From the sequence record OM386658.1: a stretch of DNA of 64,000 bases; one strand, 5' to 3'. The notes below the pieces were generated by a model. The model ran no database searches. It had not been told where the DNA came from and worked only from the letters and a program-made list of their open reading frames with translations. Positions within the stretch are counted from its first letter, which is position 1, and each line of letters begins with the position of its first letter. This DNA comes from Escherichia phage vB_EcoM_ESCO32. The position numbers were made by a program, and so were the translations under genes. Below are positions 2,758-17,404 of the stretch, in pieces.

Positions 2758-2816
2758 GGCGGGAAACCATTTCCCGCCTACGTGGTAAATAATACCATAT
2801 TGGGGATCGGTGTCAA
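2758..2816 (-). promoter_or_regulatory. early promoter plus leader stem-loop cassette
   Basis: minus strand TTGACA-16 bp-TGgTATTAT then GGCGGGAAAtggTTTCCCGCC (2758-2778). Confidence 0.6.
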
Positions 2817-2822
2817 TACTTT

Positions 2823-3209
2823 TTATTCAATATAAATCAAATTATCTTCACCAATGTAAGCATGCACCGATGGCATTAATTTAGCTGCATTTGTTAGGCG
2901 GTTGGCGGTGTTAGTAGTGTATATTTCAGGGCGATCCCAAAAGCCTACGCCGTGACCGTTACGGGTGAAATGTAAGTCATTCCCGATCTGGTTTGCTGTT
3001 GCGCCGTCGCTCATTGCCTCAGAGATAGCAGCATCATTGGCATCACAATAAGCCGCTACGTCATGAATGATCCGCTGATGGGCTTGATCTGAAAAATCAT
3101 AATCGTCTAAGTTATCAATAAAATAGCCTTCATGATCCCTGGCGGATTCAGCAAAAATAAAGGCTTCTTTATAACCGTTGATGATTTCAATAATGATTTC
3201 AGTTTTCAT
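2823..3209 (-). CDS. hypothetical early protein (128 aa)
   Basis: ORF track; ATG start overlapping the stop of the upstream gene (translational coupling). Confidence 0.55.
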   Translation of the reverse strand: MKTEIIIEIINGYKEAFIFAESARDHEGYFIDNLDDYDFSDQAHQRIIHDVAAYCDANDAAISEAMSDGATANQIGNDLHFTRNGHGVGFWDRPEIYTTNTANRLTNAAKLMPSVHAYIGEDNLIYIE

Positions 3210-3421
3210 GCTGTACGCTCGACAATAATAATGGTTTGCGGTATCTCGTTTTCTACTACTAACAAGGCTTTTTTCTGTGTGATAGATATTTTAACACGTT
3301 GTAAAGTAGCGGTAAAATCTTTCATTTCATTATGCGCGGATTTAGTGCAATGCCATATTTCAGGTTTACCAATTTGCAAGCCGCGTAAAAATTCTGTTTT
3401 ACCTGTCTTATTCGTGATCAT
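3206..3421 (-). CDS. hypothetical early protein (about 71 aa)
   Basis: ORF track frame 3206..3439 (TTG in track); in-frame ATG (MITNKTGK) with AAGGTG RBS preferred. Confidence 0.45.
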   Translation of the reverse strand: MITNKTGKTEFLRGLQIGKPEIWHCTKSAHNEMKDFTATLQRVKISITQKKALLVVENEIPQTIIIVERTA

Positions 3422-3431
3422 TTGATTCACC

Positions 3432-3536
3432 TTATCCAATACCGTGGGAAGATAGGATCATGTTAGCCATAGTTGCAACCAATCCAACCGATAACACCAG
3501 GCCAACTACTACAACCGTGAAAATTTTCTCTAACAT
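3432..3536 (-). CDS. possible small hydrophobic peptide (34 aa)
   Basis: ATG with GAGGG RBS directly downstream of a promoter/hairpin cassette; MLEKIFTVVVVGLVLSVGLVATMANMILSSHGIG; below the ORF-track size cut-off. Confidence 0.25.
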   Translation of the reverse strand: MLEKIFTVVVVGLVLSVGLVATMANMILSSHGIG

Positions 3537-3554
3537 GATTCTACCCTCATTAAT

Positions 3555-3616
3555 GGGCGTTGCCTTATTGCCCCGCCCTATGTCGTACACTTTACCAGAT
3601 AACTGAATATTGTCAA
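3555..3616 (-). promoter_or_regulatory. early promoter plus imperfect leader stem-loop
   Basis: minus strand TTGACA-16 bp-TAAAGT then GC-rich imperfect palindrome GGGCGGGGCAAtaaggCAACGCCC. Confidence 0.5.
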
Positions 3617-7079: not shown

Positions 7080-7138
7080 GGCGGGAAACCATTTCCCGCC
7101 GTTGTTGTTACTTTACTTATAAATGATGCTACTGTCAA
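7080..7138 (-). promoter_or_regulatory. early promoter plus leader stem-loop cassette
   Basis: minus strand TTGACA-17 bp-TAAAGT then GGCGGGAAAtggTTTCCCGCC (7080-7100). Confidence 0.6.
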
Positions 7139-7145
7139 ACGGATA

Positions 7146-7316
7146 TTATTTGTTTTTTAACGTTAATGTTCCCAGCTTATCAGCGTGACGCAGACCAGGA
7201 AAGATCCATTTTCCTGATTCATCTTTTACCGGGGCTTTAAGCGTAGCGCCCAGATTGGCGGCATTAACTTTACGTGCAACGTTGCGAGCGGCTTCACGGG
7301 TGGCGAAAGTGATCAT
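7146..7316 (-). CDS. small hypothetical protein (56 aa)
   Basis: gap ORF MITFATREAARNVARKVNAANLGATLKAPVKDESGKWIFPGLRHADKLGTLTLKNK; hairpin upstream. Confidence 0.45.
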   Translation of the reverse strand: MITFATREAARNVARKVNAANLGATLKAPVKDESGKWIFPGLRHADKLGTLTLKNK

Positions 7317-7340
7317 GGTGTTTTCCTCTTCTCTTTGTTA

Positions 7341-7400
7341 GGCGGTGGGCTATTCCACCGCCTTGATGAATATAGTTTACTTTATTTTGTTAAGATTGCA
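7341..7400 (-). promoter_or_regulatory. promoter-like element plus leader stem-loop
   Basis: GGCGGTGGgctattCCACCGCC hairpin (7341-7362) preceded on minus strand by TTGCAA-16 bp-TAAACT. Confidence 0.5.
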
Positions 7401-7407
7401 AGCGGTT

Positions 7408-7623
7408 TTATGAAATAATTGTCAAAGTAAAATCATAATCTTTTGACAGTTTATATTGTACCTTGTTCCCGTAATAGTCACCTTTACGTAAAGATCCGCG
7501 AATACCTATTACATCCTTTACATCTTTAAGATTTTTCACGCCTGTAATGTCTTTATTGAAATGATCGTGATCAGAAAATAAAACCTGCTTTGCATTTTTT
7601 AACAATGTGCGGATATTAGCCAT
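7408..7623 (-). CDS. hypothetical early protein (71 aa)
   Basis: ORF track; ATG; cassette upstream. Confidence 0.5.
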   Translation of the reverse strand: MANIRTLLKNAKQVLFSDHDHFNKDITGVKNLKDVKDVIGIRGSLRKGDYYGNKVQYKLSKDYDFTLTIIS

Positions 7624-7643
7624 TTGATAATCTCTCTCACTAT

Positions 7644-7701
7644 GAGCGGCACTATTGCCGCCCTATGAATTACATTTTACTAATTTTAGTTATCTTGTCA
7701 A
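7644..7701 (-). promoter_or_regulatory. early promoter plus leader stem-loop cassette (variant B)
   Basis: minus strand TTGACA-16 bp-TAAAAT then GGGCGGCAatagTGCCGCTC (7644-7663). Confidence 0.6.
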
Positions 7702-7709
7702 TATTATTT

Positions 7710-7937
7710 TTAGTTTAATGCATCCAGGCACAACAAGCGATCAACATTTAGATCGGTTAGGCTAATCGTTGGCACCTGGTAGGATTCGATATATTCGACG
7801 CTCGACCACTGACCAAAATTAGCGACCGCCCAGCTATTCAAGGAAGAGTGAAGATCATCCCCTTTCTTCTCTGTGATGACTGCTACTACCTGGGAGCTTC
7901 CAACCGTACCGGATACGCGAACAATAACGATAGCCAT
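7710..7937 (-). CDS. hypothetical early protein (75 aa)
   Basis: ORF track; ATG with AAAGG RBS. Confidence 0.5.
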   Translation of the reverse strand: MAIVIVRVSGTVGSSQVVAVITEKKGDDLHSSLNSWAVANFGQWSSVEYIESYQVPTISLTDLNVDRLLCLDALN

Positions 7938-7960
7938 AATTATAACCTTTCTTTGATTTG

Positions 7961-8020
7961 GCGGGAAACCATTTCCCGCCCTATGTGATAAACTATACCA
8001 GAATATAAAACGTTGTCAAC
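7961..8020 (-). promoter_or_regulatory. early promoter plus leader stem-loop cassette
   Basis: minus strand TTGACA-16 bp-TATAGT then GGCGGGAAAtggTTTCCCGCC (7961-7981). Confidence 0.6.
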
Positions 8021-8028
8021 TGTTTTTA

Positions 8029-8268
8029 TTACATTCCAACCATAGCGGCACGGATTGCAGTTTTACTATACTTGAATCCGTCCGGTGTTTTATCTTGTCC
8101 AGTTTGCTCCAGGAATAACATCATATCACGCGCGGCATCATTCTTATTTGTATTAGCTGCGATAAATTCACGCGCAAGATTATAAAAACCTTCATCGTTG
8201 TTGATCCAAAGGCTTACATTCCAATGAGTTTTGTTTTTGTGACCGTTGTACATTTTAGATTTAGCCAT
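8029..8268 (-). CDS. hypothetical early protein (about 79 aa)
   Basis: ORF track frame 8029..8325; track start overlaps the -10 TATAAT; in-frame ATG (MAKSKMYNGHK) downstream of hairpin chosen. Confidence 0.5.
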   Translation of the reverse strand: MAKSKMYNGHKNKTHWNVSLWINNDEGFYNLAREFIAANTNKNDAARDMMLFLEQTGQDKTPDGFKYSKTAIRAAMVGM

Positions 8269-10967: not shown

Positions 10968-11240
10968 TTAAAGCAAAAATGCTACATCTTGCGCTTTTAG
11001 TGTAGTGTCGATCATTTTCGGGCTTTTATAATCAACAAAGCGCGCGGTTTTTTCAATAGCGAAACCTAAATAATCTTGCTTATTGAAATTACATTCTTTT
11101 TTAAATGTTTCCCGTGCCACGGTGATCGCTGCATCCAGGGATAAACGCCCATCAATATTAATATTAGCGAAAGATCCGCCACCGCGCATAGGTTTACCAG
11201 TGATACCCATTACGATCATTGATGCGCTATATGATGCCAT
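10968..11240 (-). CDS. hypothetical early protein (90 aa)
   Basis: ORF track; ATG; cassette upstream. Confidence 0.55.
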   Translation of the reverse strand: MASYSASMIVMGITGKPMRGGGSFANINIDGRLSLDAAITVARETFKKECNFNKQDYLGFAIEKTARFVDYKSPKMIDTTLKAQDVAFLL

Positions 11241-11262
11241 GATTATTTCTCTCTTCTGTTAT

Positions 11263-11320
11263 GAGCGGCACTATTGCCGCCCTATGTGATACATCTTATC
11301 AGATTAAAAAACGTTATCAA
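11263..11320 (-). promoter_or_regulatory. early promoter plus leader stem-loop cassette (variant B)
   Basis: minus strand TTGATA-16 bp-TAAGAT then GGGCGGCAatagTGCCGCTC (11263-11282). Confidence 0.55.
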
Positions 11321-11328
11321 GAATATTT

Positions 11329-11424
11329 TTAAAAAATAATAACCGCTACTACAACCCAAAATGGAACGGCGAGAATGATAGCGTTAATCGTTCCAACCGC
11401 CAAGCTGTTTTCTTTCTTGATCAT
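11329..11424 (-). CDS. possible small membrane peptide (31 aa)
   Basis: gap ORF MIKKENSLAVGTINAIILAVPFWVVVAVIIF; first gene position of the minus array; speculative. Confidence 0.2.
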   Translation of the reverse strand: MIKKENSLAVGTINAIILAVPFWVVVAVIIF

Positions 11425-11692
11425 CGTTATCAACCTTTTATAAGTAATGTTATTGTGACGGTGGATTGTGGAGATCCTCACCTTTGCCCGTCCTGCATTG
11501 CGCCCTCCTTTTGTTTATTGTCGTTGTGCCTCGCCCCCCTCGACAAGATGAATAATACGCTACCAGGTGAGGAACGTCAACCCCTTTTTTAATCTTTTTT
11601 TCATTTCTTTTTTGCTTGCTATCTATAAAGGAAAGGGGCTATTATCTTTCTACCGCGCCAACCAGGGCGCACATCAAAGAAAGGGCGATACC

Positions 11693-12772: not shown

Positions 12773-13324
12773 TCAGGAAATATCAGATTGTGCTTTTAGA
12801 TAAACAGCAAGGTCTGTATGCCATTTTCCTAAAAGATTTTGTCCTTTCCAACAGTCCTTATTTTCCACATCACGATCCCACATCCCCATTTTGATACCAT
12901 AAATAGAATCATAAGGGCTTGCCTCTACGAACTCCTTATCGGCGTAAGCAATAAGTTTATTTTTGAGATCTTCATTTTGTGTGTATTTAAGATACAAACC
13001 ACGCTTGACAATCTTCTCTCGTAAAGAAGTCCAGGTATCTTCATCATAATCTTTAACTAATCTGCCTAGTCGCTTATAATATGCTTGTTCTTTTTCTCCT
13101 GTATATCTTAGACCTCCGGTTAAAATAGAAGATGCAATGTTGTAATCATAAAATAAACATGCTTTTCTCCACATCATATATTGTTCCACACAAGTAAATT
13201 CAACAGAACTTGTAATAGAATTATTATACTTGGGAGCTAAAGGTTCAATAAAAGATGATAGATACCAGTTGCTAAATTCATCTTTTGCCGAGAAGAAGAA
13301 CACATACTTATCAGTAATCCGCAT
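12773..13324 (-). CDS. NADAR-domain (YbiA-like) protein, putative ADP-ribose or N-glycoside hydrolase
   Basis: ORF track 183 aa; FFFSAKDEFSNWYLSSF ... EQYMMWRKA ... ASPYDSIYGIKMG ... GQNLLGKWHTDLAVYL follows the NADAR pattern recalled from E. coli YbiA. Confidence 0.7.
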   Translation of the reverse strand: MRITDKYVFFFSAKDEFSNWYLSSFIEPLAPKYNNSITSSVEFTCVEQYMMWRKACLFYDYNIASSILTGGLRYTGEKEQAYYKRLGRLVKDYDEDTWTSLREKIVKRGLYLKYTQNEDLKNKLIAYADKEFVEASPYDSIYGIKMGMWDRDVENKDCWKGQNLLGKWHTDLAVYLKAQSDIS

Positions 13325-14503
13325 TTACACCTCCTTACTGTATACTAACTTGCCACCATGTTGTGTAATAATTTTTTGAAGATTTTCCAAATCAGAAGCA
13401 CTTACTGTTTCTGTATGACCATCTTTCAACTCTCTTGCTGTTAAAATACCAGTTTTTAGTTTTTTCTTTATAGCTCTTTCAGCAGCCTTACACTGTTTCA
13501 CTGTACTAAAATCATATAAACAAATACGCTCCATAAAAAACATATTATGCCTATTTTGATTGTTTAATCGCCTGTCACTATCTTTAGCTATGCCAAACTT
13601 AAGAGCAACTATAATATCATTATCTTTAACAATATTAATATATAATTGCTGTTGACTATGACCTGCACATTGTGGACAACCTTGACCGTGGCTTAATAAG
13701 TTATTAACACGCCCTATCTGCTCCCCATGCACAAGACAAAGATATTTAAACTTACCTGTAGAAGATGGTTTGGTAATCCAATCTACCCAGACATACCCTT
13801 TCCCTTCTACTTCCTTTTTTACCCTATAGGTGATCTGGTCTTCTGTATACTGATAGTTCCCACAACGACACGGAATGTACCCTTGTTTAAGGCGATTTCC
13901 TTTAGAGTAAAATTTACCATCACAAACACCTGCTTGAACATATTCATCATGAGAGCAAACAGGACATTCAACCATCCAGGTAATATGCCTACATCCTTTA
14001 CCCCGTGTTCCTGTGTTAGTGAAGATAGTGCCTTCCTTAAATTTCCCTGTAGAAAAGAAACCTGCAATATGTTGATCGTCGGACATTGTTTGTTTCTCCC
14101 TCCTACATTGTGGACAACCTCGACCGACTTTAAATTGATCAATTGCTGTACTTTGCCATCTATTCCCACAATGGCACAACAAATCAAGTTTTGTGTAACA
14201 CCCTTTCCATTCTCCAACGTACCCTAATACTTGATACTCCTTCTTCTGTGCTATCTCTTCCAAGATCGGTAATTCTGCTTCCCATGTTAACGGCTTATTC
14301 CTTGCACATGTCGGACAACCACGTCCATTCTTAAAATCATTAATGCTCGTGGTGTTCCATTCTCCATGATCAGAGCAAGATAGCTTAAGTTTAGTCTTGT
14401 TCCCTTTCCATTCTCCCGTCCATCCTAAGATTTGGATTTGCTTACTCTCTGCTATTGGTTGACACTCTTCTTTATATTGTTCCCATGATTTTGGTGCTAC
14501 CAT
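13325..14503 (-). CDS. zinc-ribbon repeat protein with C-terminal GIY-YIG/T5orf172-like domain
   Basis: ORF track 392 aa; at least three copies of G(W/Y)xGEWKG...KLxLxC..(H)G..W.....I..FK.GRGCP.CA; C-terminal LYINIVKDNDIIVALKFGIAKDSDRRL. Confidence 0.65.
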   Translation of the reverse strand: MVAPKSWEQYKEECQPIAESKQIQILGWTGEWKGNKTKLKLSCSDHGEWNTTSINDFKNGRGCPTCARNKPLTWEAELPILEEIAQKKEYQVLGYVGEWKGCYTKLDLLCHCGNRWQSTAIDQFKVGRGCPQCRREKQTMSDDQHIAGFFSTGKFKEGTIFTNTGTRGKGCRHITWMVECPVCSHDEYVQAGVCDGKFYSKGNRLKQGYIPCRCGNYQYTEDQITYRVKKEVEGKGYVWVDWITKPSSTGKFKYLCLVHGEQIGRVNNLLSHGQGCPQCAGHSQQQLYINIVKDNDIIVALKFGIAKDSDRRLNNQNRHNMFFMERICLYDFSTVKQCKAAERAIKKKLKTGILTARELKDGHTETVSASDLENLQKIITQHGGKLVYSKEV

Positions 14504-14540
14504 CTACTACTCCTTTTATTAAATCTGGCATCAATACAAG

Positions 14541-14568
14541 AAAACCCGCCGGAGCGGGTTTTTATTTG
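14541..14568. terminator. intergenic GC hairpin, possible attenuator/terminator
   Basis: AAACCCGCcggaGCGGGTTT followed by TTTATTTG on plus strand and weaker U-tract on minus; lies between two minus-strand genes. Confidence 0.4.
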
Positions 14569-14577
14569 CTGGCTTAC

Positions 14578-15705
14578 TTAAAACACGCTTGCCAAAGTTG
14601 CACCATTGGTGATAGTTGGTTCCAGAACAATACGGAAAGAATCTTCTGGATCATCACTAAACACAACGATTTTACCACCTGTAATAAGATCTGCTTTCAT
14701 TTTTGTCGCATTCAATGGAATTCGAGCATCGCCTTCATCATCAAAAACCACGTAAGAGCTATTAGCAAGGGCTTCTTTAGAGTCTGCATCACTTGGAGAT
14801 GACAAGTACACGTCTAGTGTGCACGAGCCACCTAAAAAGATTGCAGGTGTAAAGTTATGCCAACTAGATACCCAGCTAACTTTCTGAAGTTTTCCATTAA
14901 TAACAACGCTACTGATATCCCATTTATTACCCCCACCCAAAGAAACGCCCATCATAGAGATACATTCTTTAAAGGATAAATCAGGGTAGAAATTAAGTTC
15001 TTCTACTATACCTTGGATCACATCAAAGGACAACTCTAAACTTACATCCCAAAGTCTTTGGAAATTATCAAAGTGTGCTTTGTTATCCAGGTTTTTATCT
15101 AAATAGTCAATCATAGTTTCTAGTGAGATTTTATCATAATTAAAATTATAAAACACACGACTAGGACGATTTAAAAAGAATTCAGAGATAAAACCACTGT
15201 TTTTAGTCAGAATAAACAGTTTATTACCACTGCCAGTACCATCTAACAAAGTGAGAAGTGCTTCTTGATCTTGTTTCTTCTCATACACTTTATCAAACTC
15301 GTCAAAAATAATCACTGCTTTGTCGGTGATCTTGCTAATAAGTTCAATGAAATTAGCATCACTGTAGGCTTGAGTAACCATAATAGTAGGAATACCTTCT
15401 TCTACAAGGTCACGACTAATGAGTTTGGCTAACATAGTTTTACCACTACCCTTAGTTCCTGTCAGAAGCAATCCTGTATTTTTACCTTGTGCACTCCGGC
15501 GATGGAATGTACGGATAACGTGATTTGCTCGTTTTTCTGTTTCACCATACAGAACATCCGGTACACCTGTCAGATTACCACGGCTTAAAAAATAATTGCC
15601 AAGGGGATCACGACTAACAGTATAGAATCCAGGTGGAAGATAGTTAGATTCCACGCCCATATCTTTATTTACACTTACAATATCACCATAAATCGTGTAT
15701 TTCAT
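14578..15705 (-). CDS. P-loop NTPase (AAA-like), paralog of CDS 30467..31627
   Basis: ORF track 375 aa; Walker A GTKGSGKT, Walker B IIFDEFD; about 45 percent identical by eye to the N-terminal 230 aa of the plus-strand paralog. Confidence 0.8.
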   Translation of the reverse strand: MKYTIYGDIVSVNKDMGVESNYLPPGFYTVSRDPLGNYFLSRGNLTGVPDVLYGETEKRANHVIRTFHRRSAQGKNTGLLLTGTKGSGKTMLAKLISRDLVEEGIPTIMVTQAYSDANFIELISKITDKAVIIFDEFDKVYEKKQDQEALLTLLDGTGSGNKLFILTKNSGFISEFFLNRPSRVFYNFNYDKISLETMIDYLDKNLDNKAHFDNFQRLWDVSLELSFDVIQGIVEELNFYPDLSFKECISMMGVSLGGGNKWDISSVVINGKLQKVSWVSSWHNFTPAIFLGGSCTLDVYLSSPSDADSKEALANSSYVVFDDEGDARIPLNATKMKADLITGGKIVVFSDDPEDSFRIVLEPTITNGATLASVF

Positions 15706-16362: not shown

Positions 16363-16614
16363 TTAAAATTCAACCACCACTTTATCGAGGTGCTCTGCTT
16401 CAACTTGATCTAATGTTAACACCTCAACTAAACCCTTGTCAATACCTAATTTAATAACATCAACATATTGTCCAAACAGATCCTGGATAGATATCTTGTG
16501 TTCGACAACAACAACCACTTCATTCCCTTTTGTGAATTCTCTCCATACACGTCCACATTTGAAAATAAAGTCTGCTTCATCTGCTGTTATCATTTTAGGT
16601 TTGATACTTAACAT
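16363..16614 (-). CDS. hypothetical protein (83 aa)
   Basis: ORF track; start overlaps the stop of the upstream gene. Confidence 0.5.
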   Translation of the reverse strand: MLSIKPKMITADEADFIFKCGRVWREFTKGNEVVVVVEHKISIQDLFGQYVDVIKLGIDKGLVEVLTLDQVEAEHLDKVVVEF

Positions 16615-16952
16615 TATAAAACTCCGTACTCTGGTTCAATATTATGCTTACGACAAATGGCATCCCAACGCTCATTACCAAAACTTCTTCCATGTAGTGC
16701 ATCGTATGCGAAATGTTCTGCCAACCACATTACTACACCATCTGGTTCAGTGTCAAGCGGAATTCGAAACTCTCGATCATAACGCATACGGAGAACAAAC
16801 TCATTACCGTCTTCCAGCAGGTGCATATGACTTTTAGCTCGTGATGCCAAATCGAAGAAAGGAGGTTCATCGTTCCAAACGTGACGCTCAACTTCAACAC
16901 CATGATCAACTACCAAAGTGGCAATTACTTCTCTCATTTCTTTACTAAACAT
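16614..16952 (-). CDS. hypothetical protein (112 aa)
   Basis: ORF track; ATG. Confidence 0.55.
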   Translation of the reverse strand: MFSKEMREVIATLVVDHGVEVERHVWNDEPPFFDLASRAKSHMHLLEDGNEFVLRMRYDREFRIPLDTEPDGVVMWLAEHFAYDALHGRSFGNERWDAICRKHNIEPEYGVL

Positions 16953-17050
16953 ATTAAAGCCCTCCTAATTTAATAGTCCACTCAACACCTGTTAGATAAC
17001 TTCTTTACACAAGTATACTAAGAACATATAAGTGATTTTACCAGATATGT

Positions 17051-17404
17051 TTAGCTCCACAAATTATGGAAATACTTAGCAAACAAAATACGACCTTCTA
17101 AACGCTTTTGCCGTTGTTTTTCATTAACTTCTTCAGGTGGAGTTGAATCCTTAAAAGAGGACTCCATTTTTTCAAGAATTTCTAACCAGTGTTCTGCTGC
17201 TCGTTCTTCCATATAAGGTAGATAGTCACCTTTAGCGTGTGGGTACATCCGACGAAGTAACCCGCTAGGAATTTTAACATTGTTTGTGGCTATCACTTTT
17301 GCACGATATGCAGAAAGTGCGTTGTAGATCAGTTTACTTAGTGTCACATCCAGATCAAGAAGATCACTCTCTTCAAATTGAATTTTATCGTGTACAATTT
17401 TCAT
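17051..17404 (-). CDS. hypothetical protein (117 aa)
   Basis: ORF track; ATG with AGGAG RBS. Confidence 0.55.
   Translation of the reverse strand: MKIVHDKIQFEESDLLDLDVTLSKLIYNALSAYRAKVIATNNVKIPSGLLRRMYPHAKGDYLPYMEERAAEHWLEILEKMESSFKDSTPPEEVNEKQRQKRLEGRILFAKYFHNLWS

Follow-up and report, generated by a model that had tools for sequence, protein, structure and literature searches.

Background

What does a coliphage protein that joins repeated Cys/His modules to a nuclease-like C-terminus do, and is its gene a mobile element or a lasting resident of the genome? The gene lies in a 64-kb window, the whole stretch of DNA that was analysed, from a Justusliebigvirus-like E. coli myovirus of the Stephanstirmvirinae (top match phage pEC-M2929-1AR.1, 98.3% identity over 3.7 kb). 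A sequence-only reading of the window had proposed a nucleic-acid-binding protein or nuclease. CapR zinc-finger modules, a T5orf172 domain and conserved catalytic residues support that proposal and suggest a narrower one: the gene product is probably a member of the T5orf172/CapR homing endonuclease family that cuts DNA at specific sequences, with a proposed homing-type role.

Homing endonuclease genes of phages are already known to combine these domains (Netter 2021; Barth 2023). The Vibrio satellite PLE encodes the repressor CapR, which requires its conserved cysteines for DNA binding; a CxxC...CxC motif was defined for CapR itself, and CapR was traced to the N-terminal domains of T5orf172 homing endonucleases of phage ICP1 (PMC8096241). 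Barth et al. found CapR, DUF723 or DUF4379-type zinc-finger domains (the last written both DUF4397 and DUF4379) in 200 of 229 T5orf172 homing endonuclease genes, where these domains are often repeated and recombination between intragenic repeats alters their number (PMC10448857). Another T5orf172 nuclease of ICP1, Odn, the one member with biochemical data, has been domesticated for anti-satellite defence, and cleavage is abolished in the E180A mutant both in vitro and in vivo (PMC8263062). Our literature search found nothing specific on the present gene in Stephanstirmvirinae. Its orthologues are labelled 'endonuclease' in RefSeq and 'CapR homology domain-containing protein' in UniRef.

Results

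A free-standing gene between an ATPase gene and a NADAR gene

The 392-aa reading frame that had been noted at 13325..14503 is real and lies on the minus strand. It is a complete CDS (392 aa plus stop), the longest ORF in its own region of the ORF list, and its Pfam and PHROG matches define four CapR zinc-finger modules followed by a T5orf172 nuclease domain; PHROG 681, 'endonuclease', covers the protein nearly end to end (E = 6.7e-85). A Shine-Dalgarno-like AAGGAG (14510..14515, minus strand), read directly from the sequence, stands 6 nt before the ATG. The gene is free-standing, with its own ribosome-binding site, and no paralogue was found by tblastn within the 64-kb window. Searches of NCBIfam and PADLOC gave no meaningful match for the 392-aa protein, so no tie to a known defence system is made.

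Upstream lies an AAA-type ATPase gene (14578..15705, minus strand; phrog_2376, E = 6.6e-108), whose annotation varies among records from 'FtsH-like protease' to 'ATPase or Zn metalloprotease' and 'regulatory inactivator'. Just past its stop, and ~38 nt upstream of the endonuclease gene start, a consensus scan placed a terminator-like GC-rich hairpin, AAAACCCGCTCCGGCGGGTTTT, with a T-rich tail (14541..14562, minus strand); this is a consensus match only, and such sites in the region are not above shuffle expectation. The promoter scan of the region gave 14 sites against 14.2 expected from shuffles, and hence no promoter is claimed. The tRNA scan of the whole 64-kb window found no tRNA genes. 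A divergent transcription boundary is marked at ~18000 in the window, where the GC skew reverses sign and the genes pass from the minus to the plus strand.

On the other side, a NADAR/YbiA-like gene (12773..13324, minus strand; PF08719, E = 3.2e-36) begins directly past the endonuclease stop with no spacer, which confirms the adjacency pointed out earlier. The NADAR gene also scores 109.7 bits against TIGR02464, matches the PADLOC candidate PDC-M42C (E = 1.6e-34) and weakly matches a 'NADAR family anti-phage protein' model. Proteins of this type in phages could act to undo the ADP-ribosylation of DNA. A functional link between the endonuclease and NADAR genes was considered and rejected, because two extra small ORFs separate them in Phapecoctavirus and the endonuclease gene is missing from Klebsiella phage 05F01, which does have NADAR. 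The adjacency, which is not conserved outside Justusliebigvirus, looks incidental.

The C-terminal domain has a predicted GIY-YIG-type fold

Residues 283-392 (13328..13657, minus strand) form a T5orf172 domain of the GIY-YIG superfamily. PF10544 (T5orf172) scores 23.8 bits with the whole protein and 25.9 bits with the domain alone, above its cutoff of 20, in agreement with the T5orf172-like domain first recognised by eye. The AlphaFold model of aa 282-392 is of very high confidence (pLDDT 94.7, pTM 0.87) and has the topology beta-beta-alpha-beta-alpha-alpha, so that the domain is predicted to adopt a GIY-YIG-type fold (beta1-beta2-alpha1-beta3-alpha2-alpha3). The protein had been said to end with LYINIVKDNDIIVALKFGIAKDSDRRL; this motif is present at aa 287-313 but is not terminal, since it opens a C-terminal domain of ~110 aa.

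Alignment of profiles with hhalign relates the domain to ICP1 Odn (gp88) with 94.9% probability (E = 4e-8) and pairs Odn R148 with R312, E180 with E342, and E202 with E365. Conservation was scored across 29 homologues, down to 26% identity: Y288, G304, E342 and E365 are invariant (29/29), and K302 and R312 are kept in 28 of the 29. With the 392-aa protein as query, tblastn also reaches phage T5 (E = 4e-7) and RB49/JSE.

The description of this part as GIY-YIG-like holds for the superfamily fold and for T5orf172 but not for the canonical family. The canonical GIY-YIG profile, PF01541, had no match at E <= 1 in the 392-aa protein; the first motif reads Y-I-N, the second K-F-G, and the helix-1 His/Tyr position is occupied by Q316/N317. 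The missing PF01541 match and the missing helix-1 His/Tyr together make the protein a T5orf172/superfamily member rather than a canonical GIY-YIG protein. The helix-1 His/Tyr is also missing in Odn (PMC8263062). Profile searches of the PDB with full-length and C-terminal alignments returned nothing significant (best E ~0.08, to the TFE zinc ribbon and bL31). A Foldseek search of the PDB with the full-length model gave nothing at E <= 0.001 and reached GIY-YIG nucleases only at E ~2, a failure probably due to flexibly linked domains in that model (pTM 0.47).

Four CapR modules precede the nuclease domain

The rest of the protein is a tandem array. PF21817 (CapR homology domain) matches the whole protein with E = 1.4e-38 in four stretches, which upholds the view of these repeats as Cys/His modules of zinc-ribbon type, with putative Zn ligands. 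The modules were also scanned one by one against the PF21817 cutoff of 24.2 bits. Module M1 (aa 7-68; 14300..14485, minus strand) scores 53.4 bits, with putative ligands C43, H46, C63 and C66, and M2 (aa 73-135; 14099..14287, minus strand) scores 48.8 bits, with putative ligands C110, C112, C130 and C133. The divergent M3 (aa 139-215; 13859..14089, minus strand) scores 42.7 bits over aa 154-215. M4 (aa 216-282; 13658..13858, minus strand; putative ligands C256, H259, C276 and C279) reaches 24.0 bits when scanned alone (E = 4.4e-5), marginally below the cutoff, and is counted among the four stretches of the whole-protein match.

At least three copies of a module with the pattern GW.GEWKG...KL.L.C..HG.W.....I..FK.GRGCP.CA had been reported. 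The pattern is present, and the divergent M3 raises the count to four. By blastp, M1 is 48% identical to M2 (E = 5e-22) and 33% identical to M4 (E = 9e-7), a likeness far beyond chance. The likeness of M3 to the other modules goes undetected by pairwise blastp and is found by the PF21817 profile; its ligand order is reversed (C180xxC183 ... C212xC214), with a further conserved C194. The earlier module length of ~45 aa fits the conserved core but not the repeat period, which is 67 aa (201 nt).

The putative ligands were scored across the same 29 homologues. Every module keeps at least three of its four Cys/His ligand positions in 27-29 of the 29: C43 of M1 in 27 and C63 and C66 in all 29; C110, C130 and C133 of M2 in 28; C180, C183, C212 and C214 of M3 in all; and the M4 ligands in 27-29. 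The second ligand of M1 (H46) and of M2 (C112) shifts position between homologues. Searches of the PDB by sequence and by Foldseek found no solved structural relative of the CapR modules, so that their fold class and their mode of DNA contact rest on models.

The repeats are also visible in the DNA. A repeat search identified two microhomologies on the plus strand: D2, which encodes GEWKG (M1 14401..14414, M2 14200-14213, M4 13795-13808), and D1, which encodes G-R-G-C-P-x-C (M1 14306..14327, M2 14105-14126, M4 13667-13688). The D2 copies of M1 and M2 are spaced 201 nt apart, and the D1 copies of M2 and M4 are 95% identical over 22 nt.

The gene is held in one slot in two genera

The order ATPase, endonuclease, NADAR was found in every Justusliebigvirus locus sampled, and query coverage in ~55 Justusliebigvirus-level records is consistent with all of them carrying the endonuclease gene. 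All four Phapecoctavirus loci inspected carry it too, with the two small ORFs standing between it and NADAR. The sporadic presence and absence among close relatives that is a classic signature of active homing was not seen in these ~55 records or four loci. As expected of a homing gene, it is free-standing between conserved genes, and it is missing next to an ATPase of 71-74% identity in two more distant Stephanstirmvirinae, Citrobacter phage Tr1 and Klebsiella phage phi1_175008. Downstream of the ATPase these two phages carry a 205-aa conserved protein and a small ORF (Tr1 2777-3394 and phi1_175008 2969-3586, both minus strand) and have neither nuclease nor NADAR; a different protein at this position points to replacement of a gene block between lineages rather than simple insertion.

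Three further observations concern related records. Phage phiWec181 carries, ~3 kb from the conserved slot, a 317-aa T5orf172-type paralogue (7122-8075, plus strand) that shares 34% identity with aa 199-384 of the window protein and is absent at the matching place in ESCO5; its sporadic occurrence appears more like that of a classical mobile homing endonuclease gene. In Klebsiella phage vB_Kpn_K18PH07C1 (OY978784.1), tblastn found a fragment at 122253-122738 whose match is limited to M4 and the T5orf172 domain (aa 228-387, 38% identity), beneath baseplate and tail-fibre annotations; this fragment may be a remnant, or else a small T5orf172 gene missed in annotation where structural genes meet. 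Finally, the records MG065639.1, MG065656.1 and MG065645.1 ('Campylobacter phage' A150, C3 and A145) share ~94% DNA identity with the E. coli Justusliebigvirus locus and have an equal genome size, ~146 kb, and their attribution to a Campylobacter jejuni host looks doubtful.

The zinc-finger array changes by whole modules

The alleles at the slot differ in the number of N-terminal modules: one in SD2 (329 aa) and EmilieFrey (325 aa), two in the window phage (392 aa) and PD114 (396 aa), and three in alia (465 aa), while Phapecoctavirus alleles range from 337 to 486 aa. All nine alleles examined are intact reading frames (325-486 aa), with in-frame, whole-module indels. EmilieFrey lacks exactly 67 aa (201 nt), one period, and in both SD2 and EmilieFrey the one-module deletion has fused M1 and M2 with a junction inside the GEWKG motif, at the 14-nt D2 microhomologies of 201-nt spacing.

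Identity to SD2, alia, EmilieFrey and PD114 was computed in 100-nt bins. The flanks of the gene are 96-100% identical across these four relatives and its nuclease-coding part 90-98%, whereas the zinc-finger part is 47-88% identical or deleted; this DNA-binding region is the sole hypervariable segment in the ~5 kb compared. Co-conversion or mosaic tracts, the other classic mark of active homing, were not visible in the flanks, which are uniformly similar (94-100%), and mosaicism was confined to the gene's own zinc-finger region. Elsewhere in the window, identity falls to 44-74% against an otherwise 96-100% at ~16600-17200 (SD2, alia) and ~11200-11500 (SD2, PD114), blocks that look like further replacement or mosaic segments among small early genes.

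Comparison between genera separates the two halves of the gene. Between phAPEC8 (Phapecoctavirus) and SD2 (Justusliebigvirus) the ATPase is 45-80% and the nuclease domain 46-70% identical, and the first ~180 nt of the endonuclease gene are 91-96% identical, one module common to two genera. Between phAPEC8 and ESCO5, both Phapecoctavirus, the ATPase and nuclease domain are 93-100% identical and the zinc-finger region 23-63%. The catalytic domain is thus inherited with the genome around it, unlike the recognition modules.

Substitution rates agree with this division. The ATPase (375 codons) showed zero amino-acid differences in four comparisons (dN 0, dS 0.07-0.11), a degree of purifying selection that is unusual in a phage protein. 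Values were dN 0.002-0.007 and dN/dS 0.01-0.06 for NADAR, dN 0.03-0.05 and dN/dS 0.22-0.30 for the nuclease domain, and dN 0.006-0.52 for the zinc-finger segments, where dS is saturated in some pairs; dN/dS lies at 0.2-0.5 in most segments of the endonuclease gene. The saturated dS indicates that diverged sequence was imported, rather than produced by fast point mutation. In the variable modules dN/dS is below 1 in all computable comparisons except M3 against SD2 (2.47, on very few changes). Positive selection on the zinc fingers is not claimed, since much of the divergence comes with saturated dS and the sole excess rests on few substitutions. By these comparisons the nuclease domain is inherited vertically under purifying selection, and the DNA-reading modules turn over among related phages, by exchange, loss and gain, much more quickly than anything near them.

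Discussion

It is hypothesized that the four CapR modules are arranged as beads on a string, each holding one Zn through C-x(1-3)-C/H and CxxC knuckles, and that together they would read an extended DNA site. The T5orf172 domain would then cut nearby using R312 and E342, with Y288, K302 and E365. A likely substrate would be the DNA of co-infecting relatives that carry a different allele or lack the gene, and cutting could lead to repair-mediated gene conversion or to exclusion of the competitor. Specificity would shift by import of modules from other phages and by unequal recombination at microhomologies of 14-22 nt, which repeat in step with the 201-nt module period.

The closest known counterparts are the ICP1 putative homing endonucleases, which match the protein directly (tblastn E ~3e-22, 29% identity over ~80% of the protein). 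ICP1 gp174, gp165, gp121, gp53 and gp130 likewise combine one or more N-terminal CapR modules, often repeated, with a C-terminal T5orf172 domain (Netter 2021; Barth 2023), and between gp174 and gp174* the module number has changed by intragenic repeat recombination, as at the coliphage gene. Unlike these Vibrio phage genes, the gene described here belongs to E. coli Stephanstirmvirinae, and its protein has four modules, one with reversed ligands. ICP1 has many sporadic copies, whereas the coliphage gene occurs once per genome, in a slot shared by two genera. PLE CapR shares the zinc-finger module, PF21817 being named after it, and its CxxC...CxC cysteines match M3, but it represses ICP1 capsid genes without a nuclease domain, whereas the coliphage protein keeps an apparently intact one.

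Odn has a homologous nuclease domain, its catalytic E180 and R148 corresponding to E342 and R312, but binds DNA by a satellite-captured RepA_N domain and not by CapR fingers; its target, the PLE origin iterons, and its anti-satellite role are established for Odn only. The T4 I-TevI and Seg proteins are more distant: they have the GIY...YIG motif, whereas the coliphage protein has Y-I-N...K-F-G, lacks the helix-1 His/Tyr and has no Pfam GIY-YIG match. The nuclease of I-TevI is N-terminal, the reverse of the order here, and the DNA-binding domains of the T4 proteins (HTH, single Zn finger linker) are unrelated to CapR modules. Slx1 and At-HIGLE, eukaryotic branched-DNA resolvases with RING/Slx4 partners, share only a likeness of fold at 13-16% identity.

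Long retention in one slot in two genera is to be expected of a useful resident no less than of a purely selfish gene. Together with purifying selection on the nuclease, this retention leaves room for a domesticated role that benefits the phage. The protein may therefore be a resident nuclease that cuts satellites, competing phages or host DNA, as ICP1 Odn does, with selection continually changing the finger array to track its targets; we hold this possible, though doubtful. The slot is fixed in two genera whose neighbouring DNA shares only ~65-70% identity, the nuclease domain is vertically inherited under purifying selection, and it is the DNA-binding region that varies. Odn provides the precedent (PMC8263062), and Barth et al. 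state that domestication of such genes cannot be excluded from sequence alone. Against this, no target, satellite or partner could be identified, and PADLOC gave no match. Much of the divergence of the fingers is imported, with dN/dS below 1 bar the M3 comparison, rather than demonstrably driven by positive selection, and competing homing endonuclease alleles would give the same pattern.

A role mainly in DNA binding, as a zinc-finger transcriptional repressor with a nuclease that is inactive or rarely used, is unlikely. It has models in CapR, a repressor built from the same module (PMC8096241), and in I-TevI, which doubles as a repressor by autorepression (discussed in PMC10448857), and the gene sits in an early-type region of small genes. 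However, the expected T5orf172 catalytic residues are invariant or nearly so in homologues as distant as 26% identity, the nuclease domain is under purifying selection, and a regulator of a fixed phage promoter would hardly swap modules between phages whose neighbouring DNA is 96-100% identical. That the gene is a fixed homing endonuclease which has lost its targets and drifts towards loss, its variability a sign of relaxed constraint, is very improbable: its dN far exceeds that of its neighbours (ATPase dN = 0, zinc-finger segments up to 0.52) and modules are deleted, but all nine alleles keep intact frames with whole-module indels, Zn ligands and catalytic residues are conserved, and dN/dS stays at 0.2-0.5 in most segments. 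Conserved catalytic and Zn-ligand residues, intact alleles and a dN/dS below 1 almost throughout make a purely regulatory role or a decaying relic less likely than sequence-specific cleavage.

Sequence-specific cleavage by a member of the T5orf172/CapR family remains the preferred reading, and a further step can tentatively be taken from it. The gene could be a long-term resident nuclease that switches specificity, not a transient selfish element: a vertically inherited T5orf172 domain would stay docked in one slot while zinc-finger cassettes are continually deleted, duplicated and imported across genera, which would retarget it against co-infecting relatives, satellites or host elements. This is possible, but rather less likely than not.

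As an annotation the endonuclease gene matters little, since its class is published and its orthologues are already named 'endonuclease' in RefSeq. The local evolutionary pattern is cleaner than usual, with frozen neighbours around an array that changes by whole modules and by import between genera, and, since the BASEL collection includes several of the allelic phages, it can be tested in E. coli phages that are simple to work with. Natural alleles with one, two or three N-terminal modules in a near-identical background form a ready-made series, which bears on how tandem CapR fingers encode DNA specificity and on a possible role of such nucleases as drivers of exclusion between phages or of gene conversion. 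As the CapR module has no solved structure, a structure with DNA would be new. If the specificity-switching reading is true, coliphages would have in these genes a natural zinc-finger nuclease system that is modular and can be reprogrammed.
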